Assembly: GCA_052389415.1 (NCBI GenBank)
Contig: JBQTHX010000024.1
Coordinates: forward strand, 1 to 13,183
Reading direction: 5' to 3'
From: Nitrosopumilaceae archaeon
Lineage (GTDB): Archaea > Thermoproteota > Nitrososphaeria > Nitrososphaerales > Nitrosopumilaceae
DNA: 13,183 bases
Shown: positions 2,608 through 9,243 of the stretch, piece by piece
How the letters are laid out: each line of letters begins with the position of its first letter
Numbering within the stretch: position 1 is the first letter of the stretch
The notes under the pieces: generated by a model
Seen by the model: the letters and a program-made list of their open reading frames with translations, nothing else
Told to the model about the DNA's origin: nothing
The model's database searches: none
Made by a program: the position numbers and the translations under genes

Positions 2608-2684
2608 AAATTGATTATCTATTAGCTAGTACACAAATCATTTTCAAAAAATAAACATTTTATCTATGTACACAAAGTGTGCTT
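2608..2684. promoter_or_regulatory. Divergent promoter region (P5CDH / nurA operon) with 9-bp direct repeat
   Basis: TTTTATCTA at 2658-2666, preceded by an A-rich BRE-like tract, lies about 20-27 nt before ATG 2685. GTACACAAA occurs at 2629-2637 and 2668-2676. Confidence 0.5.
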
Positions 2685-3524
2685 ATGCGAAACACTGTCT
2701 ATCTTGACGCTTTAAAGAATCGTGAGCAAACCTTGTCTGTATTAAAGGGACAGAGATTTGAGCAGATAATCGAGGAAGCAAAAAGCAACTGGATAGAGTA
2801 CACACCACAAAGACAAGATTCCATAATTGCAGGAATAGACAGCAGCTACAACAGCACAAAATTTCAGGGATTAGAATTATGGGTAGTTGCTGCAGTATCA
2901 ATCAAGTCTGATGGCACCATAATTACAGAGCTTCACAACCAGGGGCTTGGGACACCACATCCAGAACTTGCCACTCAGGCAAGCAAGATGGAAATTGATG
3001 CCTGCGGAGCCTCTGTAGACAAGGTCGACTTGGTGGCTATCGATGGCTCGTTATACTCTCAATTTCTCACCAGACAGGCCACTCTGATTTCTTCTCTCAC
3101 ATCAGCTGTAAAAAAGAAGAATAATGTTGTCTTTATCTCAAAGACATCGATTACCAAAAATGAGTTTGGCAAGTTTGGTTCTCTGGCAGGAGATATTTTC
3201 TATTATAATCATGCGGTACAAAGACCTGGCTTTAGCAAGATCTTTGTTGACAAGGACCTTGGGCCAGGCAAAACAATTTCATCTGTGTATGCAAGACTAC
3301 GAGATTCTACACCACTTGTCAAAATAGAACTGTTAGGTTCTGATCATGATGAATCAGAGATAAGATCACTTTTGGACAGACTAAACAAGAACAGTGTGTC
3401 AGGTTACCCATATGCTCTAAAGCTAGCACACAACAATTGCAAAATTTCTTACAATGATCTTGCAAGACTAGTTAGTCTATATGGCCTTGGAAATGAAAAA
3501 GGATCAAGGGAAGTACTAGAATGA
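2685..3524 (+). CDS. nurA: NurA 5'-3' nuclease (RNase H-like fold)
   Basis: AGIDSS (first catalytic Asp), conserved Glu in KME, IDGSL, ISKTS and C-terminal GYPY.L..AH...KI. Directly upstream of herA with ATGA overlap. ATG 2685 preferred over GTG 2679. Confidence 0.9.
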   Translation: MRNTVYLDALKNREQTLSVLKGQRFEQIIEEAKSNWIEYTPQRQDSIIAGIDSSYNSTKFQGLELWVVAAVSIKSDGTIITELHNQGLGTPHPELATQASKMEIDACGASVDKVDLVAIDGSLYSQFLTRQATLISSLTSAVKKKNNVVFISKTSITKNEFGKFGSLAGDIFYYNHAVQRPGFSKIFVDKDLGPGKTISSVYARLRDSTPLVKIELLGSDHDESEIRSLLDRLNKNSVSGYPYALKLAHNNCKISYNDLARLVSLYGLGNEKGSREVLE

Positions 3525-5041
3525 ACATTGGTGTAGTTATAGGAGAGGCCAAACCAACCGAAGTCACGGCACAATCTGTCCGTCCACTCTCCGTTGGCGA
3601 ATATGTTGTTGTAGATTCACAAAACGGCAAGCTTCTTGGTCTGGTTGAGCGCTCTATTGTTTCAAGTGATGCACTGACTGATGTAAGAAATTTTGATGAA
3701 GCAATGGAGAGCAAGGAGGTAGCAGAGCTAAACATCCGCGACAAAAACTATAAAGTAAAAATTGGAATCTTGGGGTTTCTAGAAAAATTACAAAAAGGGC
3801 AGGCCATAGTTCCAGCAGTACCACCACTTCCTGGAACCTCGATATTAGAAGCTACACAGCAAGACCTTGGAGTGATATTTGCGCCAAAACAAAAAGAGTG
3901 GATTAGAATCGGCTCTCTTTTGAGGAACTCGGAAATTGAGGCAAAGATAAACCTAAACCGAATCGTCTCAAGGCACATTGGTATTCTTGCCATGACTGGG
4001 ATGGGCAAGAGCAATCTTGTCTCTTTGATAGCAAAACAAGTTTCAGCTCTAGAAGGAACCTTGATAATTTTTGATTACCACAACGATTACGCAAATCTTA
4101 GTGTTCCAAAGATTAGTGTCACTGATGCCAAGATAAATCCAAGACTCTTGCAGGCAGACAAGCTTGCCGAAGTAATCGAGCTTAGAGAGAACGCAGACAA
4201 GCAGCAAAGAGTCTTGCGAGAGTCTTTTACGGCATCTGTTAGACAGGCCAAAGACTTTTGGACTGCGCTTGAAGAAAGCGTCTCTGAGTTTGGCCACACA
4301 ACAAAGGGTTATGCAGATAGTGCAAGCAGAGTACTTGACAAAATAGATGACGCAAAGCACAGATTTTCTGACATCTTGGATCCTGATTGTGGGGATCCAG
4401 TTGATCTGATAAAAGAGGGCAGAGTAAATGTCCTAAGTGTTGCCGAGCTTAGCGAAAGACAGGCAAACGTAGGGCTGTCTTACTATTTACAAGAGTTACT
4501 CAATGACAGAAAAGATTCGTACTGGGCAAAAAAGGGAAGAAAACTTTCAGGAAAGACAGCAAAATTTTCATCACCACTTTTTGTAATAATTGAAGAAGCT
4601 CATGTCTTTATTCCAAAAGGAGAACACACTGACACAAAATACTGGGCATCCAAAGTAGCAAGAGAGGGAAGAAAGTTTGGAATTGGTCTTGGCATAGTTT
4701 CACAAAGACCAAGAAACATCGACCCAAACGTCCTAAGCCAGATGGGCTCTCTTGCTATCATGAAGATAGTTCAAGATGATGATCAGCAACAAATTGCCTC
4801 TGCAGCAGAATCTCTAAGCAAAGACCTTCTCACGCAACTCTCATCACTAAACATTGGAGATGCAGTGCTTGTTGGGCAGTGGGTAAACCTTCCGTCTATA
4901 GTTCATGTAGATGAAGTAAAGGGAAAGGCAATAGGCTCTGATCTGGATGCAGTAACAGAGTGGTCCGAATCTTCAAAGTACAAAGAGATTGCAGCAGAAT
5001 CCACACAGGGTCTTATACAAAAAGACTTGCTAATGGATTGA
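3521..5041 (+). CDS. herA: HerA DNA helicase/translocase (HAS barrel + FtsK/HerA ATPase)
   Basis: N-terminal HAS barrel (IGVVIGEA..T, VGEYV), RH..ILAMTGMGKSN Walker A, IIFDYHNDY, IIEEAH Walker B, REGRKFG, SQRP...D..VLSQ. Confidence 0.95.
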   Translation: MNIGVVIGEAKPTEVTAQSVRPLSVGEYVVVDSQNGKLLGLVERSIVSSDALTDVRNFDEAMESKEVAELNIRDKNYKVKIGILGFLEKLQKGQAIVPAVPPLPGTSILEATQQDLGVIFAPKQKEWIRIGSLLRNSEIEAKINLNRIVSRHIGILAMTGMGKSNLVSLIAKQVSALEGTLIIFDYHNDYANLSVPKISVTDAKINPRLLQADKLAEVIELRENADKQQRVLRESFTASVRQAKDFWTALEESVSEFGHTTKGYADSASRVLDKIDDAKHRFSDILDPDCGDPVDLIKEGRVNVLSVAELSERQANVGLSYYLQELLNDRKDSYWAKKGRKLSGKTAKFSSPLFVIIEEAHVFIPKGEHTDTKYWASKVAREGRKFGIGLGIVSQRPRNIDPNVLSQMGSLAIMKIVQDDDQQQIASAAESLSKDLLTQLSSLNIGDAVLVGQWVNLPSIVHVDEVKGKAIGSDLDAVTEWSESSKYKEIAAESTQGLIQKDLLMD

Positions 5042-5042
5042 C

Positions 5043-6191
5043 ATGATCTTTTCCCACATTTCTGATACACATTTGGGATTTGTACAATATTATTCAGAAG
5101 AAAGAGAACAGGACGTCTACACTGCATTTGATCAGGCAATTGATACTTCGATAAAAGATCATGTCGAGTTTGTAATATTTGCTGGGGATATCTTTCACGT
5201 TCCAAATCCAAGCGGCAAGGCAATCTTGATCTTGGCAAATGCACTAAAGCGACTAAAACAAAACGACATAGATTCTTTTTTCATACTAGGTGAACACGAC
5301 ATCAGCAGGATACGTGCAACGCCAGTTCCTTTTGTGTATCACAATCTAGAGTTTTCAAAATATATTGGAAACGGAAAACCATTTCATTACAAGGATGTCA
5401 TGCTTGTTGGGTTTGACAAGAAAAGAAAGAGCGAAGCTCACACATTTGAAATTGAATTTGCACATATAGATTCTGAAGCAAAAAAACATTCTGGACACAA
5501 AATTCTTGTCTTGCACCAGGGAATCGCCGAGATAAACAAGTTTGCCGGAGAGCTAAACTCAACTGACCTTCCAAAGAACTTTACATATTATGCCATGGGA
5601 CACCTACATGACCGAGAACTCAAAAACTTTAACCATCTTGGAGGCCCGCTTGCGTATCCTGGTTCAATTGAGCTTACCTCAAGTGAGGGAATAAAAGAGA
5701 CCCAGAAAGGATTCTACCAAGTTGATATTTCATCGCCTGAGGCAAGACCCACATGGATAAAGCTAGACACTCGTCCACAATTATCTATTAGAACAGAATT
5801 TGAAAACCTGAAAAACGAGGTAGAGTTGCTTTCAGGAAAACTACAAACATTTTCAAGAAAACCTATAGTGGAAATAAAAATTCATGGAGAAAAAATTGAG
5901 ACCGATCTCGTGCAATCGCAAATTTCAAGACTGTACCCACTTGCATTAAGGTGCTTTTGGAAGTCTATACAAAGTGAAGAAAACAACGGTTCCACATTTG
6001 TCGATAGGCCAGCAAAGATAGACGATGAAATGTTCAAACTAGCAAAAGATATCCTAAATTCAGAATCATGGGCAAGCTTTGCGATCAGGGATCTCTTACC
6101 TTTACTTTCTGCAAACCAGATTGATGAAGCAAATCATCTTGTTATGGAACATTATGATCGGTTTAAAAAGGAGAAAAAAATTGCTAACTGA
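5043..6191 (+). CDS. mre11: Mre11/SbcD metallophosphoesterase nuclease
   Basis: HISDTHLG, FAGDIFH, GEHD (variant of GNHD), LHQ, YYAMGHLH, YPGS.E motifs. Lies between herA and rad50. Confidence 0.93.
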   Translation: MIFSHISDTHLGFVQYYSEEREQDVYTAFDQAIDTSIKDHVEFVIFAGDIFHVPNPSGKAILILANALKRLKQNDIDSFFILGEHDISRIRATPVPFVYHNLEFSKYIGNGKPFHYKDVMLVGFDKKRKSEAHTFEIEFAHIDSEAKKHSGHKILVLHQGIAEINKFAGELNSTDLPKNFTYYAMGHLHDRELKNFNHLGGPLAYPGSIELTSSEGIKETQKGFYQVDISSPEARPTWIKLDTRPQLSIRTEFENLKNEVELLSGKLQTFSRKPIVEIKIHGEKIETDLVQSQISRLYPLALRCFWKSIQSEENNGSTFVDRPAKIDDEMFKLAKDILNSESWASFAIRDLLPLLSANQIDEANHLVMEHYDRFKKEKKIAN

Positions 6192-8259
6192 AATAGAGCT
6201 AGGAAATTTCCTATCGCATCATGACACAAAACTTGGCTTTGACAAGGGAGTTACAGTATTTGTTGGGCAAAACGGGGCAGGAAAGTCAAGTGTCATTGAT
6301 GGAATCACATTTGCACTTTTTGGGCAGCACACAAGAAACTCTAACAAGGGCCTGATTCGACGTGGCGCAAATCAAGGGTATGCCAAAGTAGACTTTACCA
6401 TCTCCGGAAGAGCCTTTGTGGCTGTGCGAAAGATTGATTCCAAGGGGACCCTGGGAGCACAATTTTTTGAAAAAAGAAACGGTGAGTTGATTCCTCTAGC
6501 ATCAGGTGAGAGAAAACAGTTTGGTGAATCCATGACAAGAGAGATTGAATCTCTAATTGGAATGGATTTTGACAAGCTCAAGATTGCATCAATAGTTCAA
6601 CAAGGAGAACTAAATTCCATTATTGATGCAGATCCTAAAAAATTCAAAGAACTTGTTAATGCAATTATTGGAATAGACAAGCTTGATACTGCGTTTAGTT
6701 CAATGAAAGATGTAATTGAAAACTTTCGTGAATCTGTTAGAAAAAAACTAGAGTACGATGACACTGATACCGAAAAATTAAGGTCAAGACTTGAGCTTGT
6801 TGCAAAAGAGATCCGTGATGTTCAACCACGAAAAGAAGAATTGATGGCACAAAAACAAAAACAAGAACGCGAGCTAAGAATGCTTCAACAAAAGATTGAT
6901 GCAGAGTCGCCAAAAGAATCCAAACTAAAGGATCTTGATATCAGAAAGTCTGAACTGGTAAAATATGTCAAGACTGCAATTTCGTCGCTTCAAAAAGAGA
7001 TACTAGAAAAACAAAGGAAACTTTCAGACTGTGAGGGATGTTTTGATGAAGTCTCCATCAAAAATGATATTGAAAAACAAATAAGATCTCTTGATGATGA
7101 ACTAGAATCAAAGCGTGAAGAGATCCGAGGTCTGTCAGAAAAGGTTGGTAAGCTTGGCGGACAAGAAGAGATTGCAACGAAATTAAAGCTAAAGGATGGC
7201 AAGTGTCCGGTATGCGATTCCAAAGTAGACACGTTTAGTCCTTTATTCCAAGAAGACCATATTAGAGAAGAGATTACAAAGATGAGACAGACAATTGGCT
7301 CTCTTACCAACGACGAAAAAAAGGCAGTATTGGACAAGCGTGAACTAGAGACCAAGTACAAAAAGGCTATACAGGCAGAAAACACGCTCAGAGCACATGC
7401 CATTTCAAACCCAAAAGACCTTCTCCAACTAAAAGAAGAAATTTCAAGACTACAAACTAGTGTAGAAAAAATCCCTGTAAATATTGACTCTTCGATGAAT
7501 CTACTGCACCTTGCGATTGACACGCACTCTAAAACTCTTTTAGATACAATATCTACTTTGCAAGAAGAAACAAAGGGATTTGATCTCAATGAATTCAAAA
7601 ACTTGAAGATTTCATTTGAGCAATCAAGAAGATTATCAAGTGAGATTGATCAGCAGCTTGGCGCTATTACACAAAAAATCCTCGATGCAGTACTGGAGCA
7701 AGAAAAATTATCAAAGATTCTAGACGAGCTTGTTGTGGTAAAACAATATGTCTTGGAATTGGAAGAGATTCGCAGTCAGATCTTCAATAGAGATGGTCCT
7801 GTTGCAACTAGTCTGCGTTCTTGGGCATTGAACCTAATATCTCAAAAGGCATCTGAATATCTTGCAGCATTCAATGTAAAGATTCAGCGAGTCTTACTAG
7901 AAGAAAAAGCAAGAGATGTTGGAGTCTCTTGCTTTTCTGGAAACTCTGTTTTGGATCTAGATTCACTTAGTGGTGGAGAAAAAGTCAGCATCGCTCTGGC
8001 CTTGCGACTGGGGATGGCTCACATTCTTGGTGCATCAAATCTTAATTTTATCATCTTGGATGAGCCAACAACTCATCTTGATGAAGAGCGCAGAAAATCG
8101 CTTGTCAACGTCTTGTCACAAGCATTTGAGGCAAACCTTGGCTCGATATCGCAGTTTATTATTATCACTCATGATTCAGAGATTTTTGAAAACTCTAATG
8201 TGGACATGATATACAACTTTGAATCTACAGAAGAAGGTACCAAGGTAACCCCACTCTAG
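6181..8259 (+). CDS. rad50: Rad50/SbcC SMC-like ATPase
   Basis: Probable TTG start at 6181 (MLTEIELGNFLSH), in frame with ORF 6079. Walker A GQNGAGKSS, Q-loop VQQGE, coiled coils, central zinc hook CPVC (7204-7215), LSGGE signature, ILDEPTTHLD Walker B/D-loop, ITHD H-loop. About 692 aa. Confidence 0.94.
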   Translation: MLTEIELGNFLSHHDTKLGFDKGVTVFVGQNGAGKSSVIDGITFALFGQHTRNSNKGLIRRGANQGYAKVDFTISGRAFVAVRKIDSKGTLGAQFFEKRNGELIPLASGERKQFGESMTREIESLIGMDFDKLKIASIVQQGELNSIIDADPKKFKELVNAIIGIDKLDTAFSSMKDVIENFRESVRKKLEYDDTDTEKLRSRLELVAKEIRDVQPRKEELMAQKQKQERELRMLQQKIDAESPKESKLKDLDIRKSELVKYVKTAISSLQKEILEKQRKLSDCEGCFDEVSIKNDIEKQIRSLDDELESKREEIRGLSEKVGKLGGQEEIATKLKLKDGKCPVCDSKVDTFSPLFQEDHIREEITKMRQTIGSLTNDEKKAVLDKRELETKYKKAIQAENTLRAHAISNPKDLLQLKEEISRLQTSVEKIPVNIDSSMNLLHLAIDTHSKTLLDTISTLQEETKGFDLNEFKNLKISFEQSRRLSSEIDQQLGAITQKILDAVLEQEKLSKILDELVVVKQYVLELEEIRSQIFNRDGPVATSLRSWALNLISQKASEYLAAFNVKIQRVLLEEKARDVGVSCFSGNSVLDLDSLSGGEKVSIALALRLGMAHILGASNLNFIILDEPTTHLDEERRKSLVNVLSQAFEANLGSISQFIIITHDSEIFENSNVDMIYNFESTEEGTKVTPL

Positions 8260-8744
8260 CCGCCAGTAAGCTTGGCAAACCTCTCGTTCTTGCTTAATTT
8301 TTCCATAAAGTGCAGGTTTGATAGAGCCACTACTGCAGATTCCCTTACGGGTTCACTAGAGTCTGATAACGCACCTTGTAAGGTTGCCTTTGCGTCCTGG
8401 CTTCCTATTACTCCAAGTGCTATTGCAGCTTCATGTCTTACAAAAAAGCTAGGGTCATTTTTTACCGCATTCTCTAGTGGTCTTACTCCACTTCGATAGC
8501 ACATCTGTCCAAGTGAAAAGGCAGCTTCATGTCTTACAAGCTCGTTTGGATCATCCTTTAGAACTTTGGAAACATATGGTACCATCTCCTCTCCACCAAA
8601 ATCTACAAGAATGCATACTGCTCTTGTTCTAATGACATAGTCATTGTGATCTAAGAGTTTGACAAAGTATTCTTTGTCTTTATTTTCGTATCTTTCTTCC
8701 ATCTCTGACAACAATTCTATCCGTGAGCTGGGAATGGTTTCCAT
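8256..8744 (-). CDS. HEAT-repeat (PBS lyase/DOHH-like) protein with two His-Glu motifs
   Basis: Repeats D..YVIRTRA, DPNELVRHEAAFSLGQM, DPSFFVRHEAAIALGVIG, DSSEPVRESAVVAL. ATG 8744 preferred over GTG 8750. Confidence 0.85.
   Translation of the reverse strand: METIPSSRIELLSEMEERYENKDKEYFVKLLDHNDYVIRTRAVCILVDFGGEEMVPYVSKVLKDDPNELVRHEAAFSLGQMCYRSGVRPLENAVKNDPSFFVRHEAAIALGVIGSQDAKATLQGALSDSSEPVRESAVVALSNLHFMEKLSKNERFAKLTGG
8425..8539. repeat. 19-bp exact direct repeat inside the HEAT gene
   Basis: GCAGCTTCATGTCTTACAA at 8425-8443 and 8521-8539, 96 nt (32 codons) apart. Both copies encode VRHEAA. Confidence 0.9.
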
Positions 8745-8784
8745 GCACACAATTTTATAAGCGAATATTTATTCATTGATAAAC
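8745..8784. promoter_or_regulatory. Compact overlapping divergent promoters
   Basis: TTTTATAA at 8753-8760 lies about 25 nt before ATG 8785. AATAAATA on the minus strand (about 8766-8773) lies about 22-29 nt before ATG 8744. Confidence 0.55.
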
Positions 8785-9243
8785 ATGACACGATGTAGAT
8801 ACTGGCATCTCTCAATAGATGAGCTCAAAAAGGTAACATATGATCCAAAAAAAGTACTGGTCTGGGAAATAAAATGTGCAAAAGACGACAGCGGAGCACA
8901 CTTTGGAGTATTCATTTACAGGAATGGCACGCCTTGGGATTACAAAGAGATCAAGGGAATTGTTTTTTATTATAACATGATTCCACGCGATGAAGTTCAA
9001 AAAATTTCAGAATTTCTAAAAAGCAAGTTTGGAGGAGATCCAAAAGAAAAAGGAGAACGCATCTTCTTGGTGGATTCTCGCGAATTTTATTCTCCAAATG
9101 ATATCGCAAGCCTTGCTACCGAAATTGGAAACAAGTTCGAGACAAGTGTTGAGATCTCTGTTGAGCTTGAAAACTTTACACCGCAAGAACAGGAACAAAG
9201 TAATTTTCCCTCAAGCAAACTTTTGCCAATTCCAGGCAAGTAG
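8785..9243 (+). CDS. Hypothetical protein (soluble, alpha/beta)
   Basis: Open frame of about 152 aa with normal composition that fills the intergenic space. ATG 8785 fits TATA spacing (ORF track uses TTG 8776). No recognised motif. Confidence 0.8.
   Translation: MTRCRYWHLSIDELKKVTYDPKKVLVWEIKCAKDDSGAHFGVFIYRNGTPWDYKEIKGIVFYYNMIPRDEVQKISEFLKSKFGGDPKEKGERIFLVDSREFYSPNDIASLATEIGNKFETSVEISVELENFTPQEQEQSNFPSSKLLPIPGK

Follow-up and report, generated by a model that had tools for sequence, protein, structure and literature searches.

The stretch of DNA considered here (hereafter the window) covers 13,183 nucleotides of contig JBQTHX010000024.1 in assembly GCA_052389415.1, from an archaeon of the Nitrosopumilaceae, and our subject is a small gene on its reverse strand whose product, built of HEAT repeats, appears to be the counterpart of one half of eukaryotic deoxyhypusine hydroxylase (DOHH) and is a candidate for the hydroxylase of archaeal aIF5A. 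A preliminary description, made from the sequence letters, had placed at 8256-8744 a HEAT protein of about 162 residues with two histidines 32 residues apart, and both this reading and the motifs that it quoted were confirmed from the translation. The product (METIPSS...KLTGG, 162 aa from the ATG at 8742-8744) contains LVRHEAAFSLGQM, FVRHEAAIALGVIG and EPVRESAVVAL, and in it LVRHEAAFSLGQM is followed by FFVRHEAAIALGVIG, then by EPVRESAVVAL and then by KLTGG. The two histidines are H72 and H104, 32 residues apart (74 and 106 in the numbering of a longer, 164-aa reading). Nearly all of the closest 120 database relatives are 162 aa long, and 30 open reading frames (ORFs) from related loci start at the methionine that matches this ATG; since relatives share both length and start, 8256-8744 (stop included) is the likely gene. 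The gene and its parts, in window positions, are as follows.

8256..8744, reverse strand: half-size DOHH-like HEAT gene; stop codon 8256-8258, likely ATG 8742-8744, 162 aa
8256..8750, reverse strand: longer ORF listing of the same gene, from GTG 8748-8750, two codons before the ATG; 164 aa
8553..8639, reverse strand: HEAT repeat 1, residues 36-64 (model helices 36-49 and 52-64)
8457..8543, reverse strand: HEAT repeat 2, residues 68-96, with the first His-Glu motif and LGQ (helices 68-81 and 84-96)
8526..8531, reverse strand: His72-Glu73 codons CAT GAA, first His-Glu motif, read on the DNA
8505..8513, reverse strand: Leu78-Gly79-Gln80 codons, invariant columns
8370..8447, reverse strand: HEAT repeat 3, residues 100-125, with the second His-Glu motif (helices 100-113 and 116-125)
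8430..8435, reverse strand: His104-Glu105 codons CAT GAA, second His-Glu motif, read on the DNA
8298..8354, reverse strand: HEAT repeat 4, residues 131-149 (model helix 131-149)
8337-8342, reverse strand: Glu135-Ser136 in the V-x-[E/D]-S-A-x-x-A-L of repeat 4, which aligns with ..QSCEVAL / ..DSAVVAL of DOHH
8259..8267, reverse strand: C-terminal Thr-Gly-Gly codons; T160, G161 and G162 invariant in 20/20 sequences

Pfam assigns HEAT_2 (1.5e-24), HEAT and HEAT_PBS (2.9e-11) to the protein, which is the sole HEAT_2 match in its 1.43-Mb, 94%-complete genome. Both the genes around it and the names borne by its relatives point to the Nitrosopumilaceae, a family of ammonia-oxidising archaea. The AlphaFold2 monomer, from a 20-row alignment, was modelled as an all-helical repeat (mean predicted local distance difference test score, pLDDT, 92.8; predicted template modelling score, pTM, 0.88), in which two N-terminal helices precede four helical hairpins and a short helix closes the chain. 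In repeat 1, residues R39, R41, A42, C44 and L46 are invariant in a 20-sequence family alignment.

The members of that alignment are 48-86% identical to the window protein, and R71-H72-E73, L78-G79-Q80, R103-H104-E105 and S136-A137 are invariant in 20/20 of them, among 48 invariant columns in total. The elements RHE, LGQ, VRHE and SA persist in 13/13 sequences of a wider alignment that includes a Bathyarchaeia-type branch at 33-39% identity, and both His-Glu motifs were found in 30/30 ORFs from 30 loci (Nitrosopumilaceae and two further families), so that the conservation among orthologues to which the preliminary description had tied its proposal holds in all three sets. The C-terminus follows the pattern F-x-[KR]-x-T-G-G in 20/20 Nitrososphaeria-type members, with KPKIRL in place of the TGG tail in the Bathyarchaeia-type branch. 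A C-terminal di-glycine resembles the tails of ubiquitin-like proteins.

HEAT repeats of the PBS type are extremely common, so that a general likeness to HEAT proteins, even to DOHH, says little on its own. The family profile, run against 1.84 billion representatives, matched 84,431 cluster representatives (E <= 0.001), the greater part of them very large repeat proteins; 146 of the best 150 rows were multi-repeat HEAT proteins of more than 400 residues, and the only family members among those 150 were P0122, P0328, P0333 and P0346, so that this search is uninformative on half-size relatives at greater distance. The rarity of His-Glu was counted over 2026 PBS-type repeats of these 146 large proteins, which are the best generic matches to the family profile: 8 of these repeats (0.4%) have His-Glu at the variable pair of positions that follows [VILM]R, five of the eight sitting in one protein, P0365. 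The archaeal protein has His-Glu in both of two successive repeats and, judged by sequence comparison, this pattern exceeds chance. P0365 (1029 aa) has five repeats of the form VRHEAAQ[AS]LG at residues 526-1000 and is the only generic protein of the 146 with tandem RHE.

These figures bear on a reading in which the protein is a non-catalytic HEAT adaptor, whose His-Glu pairs would be there to hold a structural metal or to make contacts with proteins, and would carry no oxygenase chemistry. HEAT repeats are overwhelmingly binding modules, and the sheer number of profile matches, mostly to very large repeat proteins, suits such a role; yet the His-Glu pair, so rare in generic repeats, is invariant here across deep divergence, and the only characterised proteins that we met with two neighbouring His-Glu motifs are DOHHs. 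We regard the adaptor reading as unlikely, if worth keeping in mind.

Sequences of DOHH (from plants and a yeast, together with protist or metagenomic forms) were retrieved by querying with P0122, a fused relative of the archaeal protein; the word-based search with the window protein itself did not reach eukaryotic DOHH. The ranking of the candidate list obtained with P0122 was set aside, being biased to proteins that share words around the His-Glu motif. The first half of DOHH reads HEAAFALGQMQD, VRHEAAEALGAIG and ETCELA and the second half RHEVAYVLGQLQ, VRHEAAEALGSIA and QSCEVAL, and the eukaryotic motifs that the preliminary description had given were essentially right. Alignment of the family profile (20 sequences) with a DOHH profile (11 sequences) by hhalign gave a probability of 99.5% (E 5.4e-23, 110 columns), with RHEAAFSLGQM set over KHEVAYVLGQL, VRHEAAIALGVIG over VRHEAAEALGSIA at the second His-Glu motif, and VRESAVVALSNL over VSQSCEVALSML. 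Both His-Glu motifs, LGQ and the [E/D]S..VAL helix align in the register of a DOHH lobe, repeat 1 pairs in the same register with the R..A.F.LR repeat of DOHH, and LGQ is invariant in all 11 DOHH sequences aligned.

In the passages available from PMC9117371, the human di-iron centre is anchored by H56, H89, E90, H207, H240 and E241, the deoxyhypusine side chain is bound by E57, E90, E208, E241 and the two LGQ glycines, and G214 is listed among the substrate-binding residues. By alignment, each of these iron and deoxyhypusine residues has its archaeal counterpart in H72, E73, G79, H104 or E105: His72-Glu73 corresponds to human H56-E57 and H207-E208, His104-Glu105 to H89-E90 and H240-E241, and the interval of seven residues from His72 to Gly79 is the same as that from H207 to G214.

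Hidden Markov models (HMMs) of the N-half and C-half of DOHH score 30 family members at 59-85 bits, as against 14-59.5 bits (median 33) for the best domain in each of the 146 large HEAT proteins and at most about 41 bits for HEAT proteins of middle size that lack His-Glu. Masking His-Glu lowers the family medians to 52-54 bits, still above the generic median; what remains of the score beyond the motif is, in these comparisons, a weaker and non-exclusive signal. Among solved structures searched by sequence, human DOHH was the best natural match (E 7e-20), the next natural ones being proteasome Rpn2-type subunits (~1e-6), YibA (1e-4), MTH187 (0.011) and CpcE (0.35). A maximum-likelihood tree of 65 domains set all His-Glu-bearing domains apart from 15 generic segments (support 99/97) and placed the N and C halves of DOHH in one group (98/99) and the archaeal family in another (89/89); the tree is midpoint-rooted, with few outgroups and several long-branch rows, and the motif columns add to the grouping. 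With that rooting it is consistent with what would be expected of a pre-duplication relative of DOHH, which is how the preliminary description had seen the protein. As far as sequence can tell, the case for homology between the archaeal protein and one DOHH lobe is strong, and the motif-for-motif match to one half, LGQM included, that had been drawn by eye is upheld by hhalign, the HMMs and the tree.

Among long Foldseek alignments of the modelled fold, the human DOHH structure 4D4Z gave the lowest root-mean-square deviation (1.8 A over 131 columns, TM 0.73). The Pfam repeat name points elsewhere, to a phycobilisome-type lyase or degradation protein of the CpcE/CpcF/NblB kind, and for this reading it can be said that no natural fold ranks above CpcE in VIA-align (Z 15.8) and that NCBIfam returns weak matches to NblB (37.9 bits), CpcE (22.2) and CpcF (20.5). 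The curated cut-offs lie far above these scores (300, 330 and 220, respectively), CpeY reaches 15.1 bits against a cut-off of 600, and the matches span generic repeats only, so that the lyase reading is effectively refuted. Archaea are not known to have phycobiliproteins, and we consider the lyase reading extremely improbable. Where the preliminary description had set the DOHH halves against the CpcE/F families, its preference for DOHH stands on sequence (E 7e-20, with CpcE at 22.2 bits against 330) and does not stand on the VIA-align fold comparison, which favours CpcE.

Pairing of the chain was modelled with two copies and two Fe(II), an alignment of our own being supplied, in three runs and with three controls. 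The model scored 0.89 (runs 0.89, 0.90 and 0.89) versus 0.22 for the best of the three controls, and the runs shared at least 91% of contacts, with a partner pLDDT of at least 91. In calibration, 20/30 solved pairs and 1/23 solved single chains attained the mark; this is only rough here as an own alignment and a ligand were used. The modelled interface is symmetric and consists of L69, H72, E73, F76, F101, H104, P132, E135, S136, V139 and the tail 159-162, with F101 against F101' and H104' across it. Because both His-Glu motifs contribute residues to it, the His-Glu faces would meet like the two lobes of DOHH.

Pairs of such units also occur as natural fusions. P0122 (363 aa, from one metagenomic contig) is a head-to-tail fusion with halves that are 57% identical and keep all four His-Glu motifs, the TGG tail being present on the second copy only, and its N-terminal copy nests within the Nitrosopumilaceae branch of the tree. 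An assembly artefact was considered and rejected for P0122, as its halves are only 57% identical. The AlphaFold2 model of P0122 (mean pLDDT 83.5), made from an alignment without eukaryotic DOHH rows, compares with human DOHH 4D4Z at a target-normalised TM of 0.79 and with the continuous repeat proteins listed at a TM of at most 0.51 at comparable alignment length; a 180-residue designed HEAT trimer reached 0.68 over a shorter alignment. Residues 1-43 of P0122 were modelled with pLDDT <50, and its N-terminal 50 residues may be the result of a mis-called start. In P0136 (285 aa), which also has four His-Glu motifs, the halves are sister to each other in the tree (96/96), which points to another independent duplication. 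P0136, P0146 and P0168 are metagenomic proteins of 252-285 aa that have four His-Glu motifs and are distinct from standard eukaryotic DOHH, and P0168 apparently has fewer repeats per half.

Repeated fusion of two units is a classical sign that the units work as a pair, and the independent re-creation of a four-His-Glu architecture speaks against the adaptor reading. The homodimer that had been predicted in the preliminary description is thus supported by the model (confident and symmetric, with the His-Glu faces in the interface and 0.89 versus 0.22 for controls, memory of the DOHH structure being a possible contributor) and by the independent fusions.

The distribution of the gene was followed in a phylum sample of 201 genomes, where a close relative was defined by E <= 1e-38. 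Close relatives are present in 32/201 genomes, namely in 26 of the 27 of the window's own family (its own genome counted), in 5/7 of a family that includes a Caldarchaeum-labelled genome and in 1/8 of a third family; there are none in the remaining families of the sample, and G140, which is 99% complete, is the sole genome among the 27 without a match. Five genomes (G023, G093, G115, G160 and G167) were dropped as carriers, their matches being generic HEAT matches (E 1e-6 to 1e-8, in ORFs of 326-880 aa). When a single genome of each prokaryotic species was scanned, at least 563 loci came up, and the labels of the best 80 comprise Bathyarchaeia/Bathyarchaeota, Nitrosocaldus, Nitrososphaera/Nitrososphaerales, Nitrosopumilales, Nitrosomirales, Gagatemarchaeum, Caldarchaeum and unspecified archaea. 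Two of the best 80 loci carry bacterial labels (L039 and L042) and are 65-71% identical to Bathyarchaeia-type sequences. In the family that holds locus L103 (labelled Nitrososphaeraceae), 60/71 sampled genomes have the gene.

A second half-size HEAT protein (167-169 aa) occurs in some Nitrosopumilaceae (L115:252-761 and L116:307-810, both on the forward strand). It has [RK]HE, about 32 residues and again [RK]HE, with QIAARN where the main family has SLGQM; 11 genomes of the window's family in the phylum sample carry a match to it, and a genome search found none in the window's own genome. This paralogue might act as a heterodimer partner of the main protein.

Haem-copper oxidase subunit I was found in 32/32 carriers of the phylum sample versus 38/169 non-carriers, and in 10/10 further carriers, 7 of them labelled Bathyarchaeia or Bathyarchaeota; as the coordinates of G284 are those of G152, the further carriers amount to 9 new ones, which brings the distinct carriers tested to 41. 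The HEAT gene is absent from many families that do have the oxidase. The aerobic setting that the preliminary description had supposed is borne out in these 41 carriers, and the association fits an O2-dependent enzyme; an aerobic oxidase in every carrier tested is also a point against a non-catalytic adaptor.

Turning to the pathway itself, deoxyhypusine synthase (DHS; 340.7 bits, contig C66) and an aIF5A ORF with a ..SKPGKHGAAKA.. loop (C60) are both encoded in the genome of the window. The preliminary description had looked to their co-occurrence with the HEAT gene, and both are indeed present, with the GKHG loop; passages of PMC5178350 state that DHS is in all archaeal genomes, and co-occurrence with it, uninformative alone, was for this reason rejected as evidence.

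The surroundings of the gene include the following two features.

8776..9243, forward strand: divergent neighbour ORF, 155 aa from TTG or 152 aa from the ATG at 8785
8745..8784, no strand: A+T-rich 40-bp spacer between the divergent genes, with TATA-like ttttataa and atatttatt, read from the sequence

The spacer possibly holds back-to-back promoters. The divergent 155-aa neighbour gave no Pfam family and no usable Atlas hit. Its divergent pairing with the HEAT gene, followed by TatC and PurP, recurs in about 20 Nitrososphaera-type loci at 40-44% identity, and this pairing was not found in the 1.5-kb flanks of other Nitrosopumilaceae loci. A Rad50-like gene (forward strand, ending at 8259) is convergent with the HEAT gene (reverse strand, ending at 8256), their stop codons overlapping by four bases, and a complete NurA-HerA-Mre11-Rad50 row occupies window positions 2679-8259 on the forward strand, upstream of the HEAT gene. 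The other side of the HEAT gene holds the 155-aa ORF, then TatC, PurP and a gene with a BFN domain. As functional context the window's own neighbourhood was rejected, since nothing in it is tied to translation and the block of ORF, TatC and PurP is a piece of synteny shared with Nitrososphaera-type loci.

Across 110 loci whose ORFs were clustered, other arrangements were met. In 3/110 loci (L069, L100 and L103, labelled Nitrososphaeraceae) the HEAT gene is followed immediately by DHS on its own strand, with a gap of about 75-115 nt between the HEAT ORF and DHS (region about 3950-5580); in L100 one TAA interrupts the DHS frame. The diphthine synthase gene dph5 (assigned by TIGR00522 at 198 bits, the cut-off being 114) is no more than 4 kb away in 12 loci and adjoins the HEAT gene divergently in L081, the gene for a Trm5b-type tRNA methyltransferase (trm5b) is directly downstream in 14 Bathyarchaeia-type loci, and a DUF371 gene and a GCD14-like methyltransferase gene are nearby in 20 and 15 loci, respectively. 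Loci L044-L057, L081, L086 and L104 have a dph5 fused to a DUF357 domain (426 aa) and Trm5b-type, DUF371 and GCD14-like neighbours. It is suggestive that enzymes modifying translation factors or tRNA are encoded near the HEAT gene in three separate arrangements, with the reservation that such genes are common in archaeal genomes and that the 110 loci are not independent.

This is where another explanation has to be weighed, in which the protein is a dimeric oxygenase of the DOHH type, with two irons or another metal, acting not on aIF5A but on some other protein-bound or free amine or alkyl chain. The evidence for metal ligands and for a dimer serves it equally well; no consistent link to DHS or aIF5A is seen, the TGG tail and the N-terminal EME helix are missing from DOHH, and the second paralogue, with two His-Glu motifs but without LGQ, suggests that the scaffold can diversify. 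Set against this, the deoxyhypusine-binding residues described in the passages of PMC9117371 (four Glu and the LGQ glycine) are all kept, the DHS, dph5 and trm5b neighbours of some lineages point to the translation apparatus, and no context suggests an alternative substrate. An oxygenase with another substrate seems to us improbable, but a serious contender.

Several results weigh against a DOHH-like enzyme acting on aIF5A. The modelled monomer fold does not single out DOHH, as VIA-align ranks CpcE (Z 15.8) and YibA (14.6) above it (13.8), and a fold that fits CpcE and YibA as well as DOHH favours the adaptor reading. The same is true of the HMM scores, about 20 bits of which are the His-Glu residues themselves: with these masked the family minimum (39-46 bits) overlaps the best generic domains (maximum 51-59.5). 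The DOHH structure may have been known to the networks that produced the dimer and fusion models, and the models may reflect memory of it. Two features of the family, the invariant TGG tail and the N-terminal EME helix, have no counterpart in DOHH. The window's neighbours (Rad50, the 155-aa ORF, TatC and PurP) and most loci give no link to translation, and among the 71 genomes of the family with DHS adjacency only G201 has the HEAT gene and DHS together; since the rest of that family sample has the genes apart, the adjacency is one event in one clade. The oxidase link is no statistical proof because the carriers belong to few related lineages. Sulfolobus acidocaldarius, used as a control genome in which DHS, eIF-5a and COX1 were found, has no HEAT_2 match, and passages of PMC5178350 report hypusine in this organism. 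The HEAT family can therefore not be the general archaeal hydroxylase, and the wider form of the preliminary proposal, in which it would fill this gap for archaea at large, must be given up, most families of the phylum sample likewise having no match; another archaeal route to hypusine must exist, which could operate in the carriers too. No report of hypusine in ammonia-oxidising archaea or Thaumarchaeota was found in the full text searched, most subscription journals being outside its scope. As to novelty, the likeness to DOHH is already visible in automatic annotation: several relatives are called 'deoxyhypusine monooxygenase' by JGI, and '(DOHH)' figures in cluster names that the Atlas assigns automatically, one of its clusters holding 162-aa 'putative DOHH' proteins in Methanobacteriota. 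These labels are unreviewed, and the expectation that such proteins would be annotated only as PBS-lyase HEAT proteins was mistaken.

All these considerations leave the archaeal protein as a plausible half-size, homodimeric, pre-fusion form of DOHH. In such an enzyme one chain of four HEAT repeats would supply what one DOHH lobe supplies, that is, two His-Glu motifs, the LGQ glycine and the [E/D]S helix; two chains would pair face to face on a two-fold axis, and each would bind one iron through His72, His104 and Glu105, so that a di-iron centre would form where they meet. The homodimer would then carry out O2 chemistry on aIF5A as its substrate, in aerobic Nitrososphaeria, Caldarchaeales and some genomes labelled Bathyarchaeia, and not in archaea in general. 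That the protein is the aIF5A deoxyhypusine hydroxylase of aerobic Nitrososphaeria and their relatives is the best single explanation that we have, and we would put its chances at about even. More doubtful, in our estimate, is a wider scenario, in which the family would be the surviving pre-duplication DOHH, having arisen in aerobic archaea (Nitrososphaeria, Caldarchaeales and Bathyarchaeia-labelled lineages) in the form of a di-iron homodimer of HEAT repeats. The DOHH of eukaryotes, with its eight repeats, would in that case derive from a tandem fusion, an event that recurred independently at least two times (P0122 and P0136).

In the passages seen of papers from 2012-2021 (PMC3306375, PMC5178350, PMC6105217 and PMC8153317), no archaeal DOHH orthologue had been found, though some archaea contain hypusine, and the passages on the topic in two reviews of 2026 (PMC12856214 and PMC13602936) mention no such orthologue. 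A half-size archaeal DOHH was not found described in the literature searched, which left most subscription journals outside its scope. Should the protein prove active, a hydroxylase could be named for ammonia-oxidising archaea and their aerobic relatives, a large and ecologically dominant group, and full hypusine would be predicted on the aIF5A of carriers. HEAT-repeat di-iron oxygenases would gain a model that is both minimal and symmetric, the origin of eukaryotic DOHH by duplication and fusion could be pictured concretely, and there would be at least two archaeal routes to hypusine, since Sulfolobus lacks the HEAT family.

Compared with known systems, the archaeal protein scores highest, in sequence and in fold alike (E 5e-40, Z about 20), with the artificial AlphaRep designs, because these are built of idealised PBS-HEAT consensus repeats (from thermostable archaeal and bacterial proteins); at the His-Glu positions they read RA, RR, RQ, RL, RY and similar (five alignments). 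With CpcE/CpcF/NblB and E. coli YibA it shares the HEAT_PBS repeat type and a solenoid of four to five repeats, but it scores far under the family cut-offs of the former, and YibA is described, in passages of PMC3306375, as being without the DOHH active-site residues. The nearest functional comparison is with DOHH / Lia1 (EC 1.14.99.29; human 4D4Z). DOHH has eight repeats and four His-Glu motifs, whereas the archaeal chain has four repeats and two His-Glu motifs, and at half the length of DOHH it would need a homodimer for activity. DOHH has a linker with an SVDPAP motif that is missing from the archaeal protein, which in turn adds its own N-terminal helix and C-terminal TGG tail, and the His-His spacing is 33 in DOHH (plant sequences counted by hand; human numbering) and 32 in the archaeal protein. 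Both are made of PBS-type HEAT repeats, with the same lobe order of R..A..L repeat, HE....LGQ, VRHE..-ALG-IG and [E/D/Q]S..VAL in the same register, and the two-lobed shape of DOHH would be reproduced by the predicted archaeal dimer and by the modelled natural fusion.

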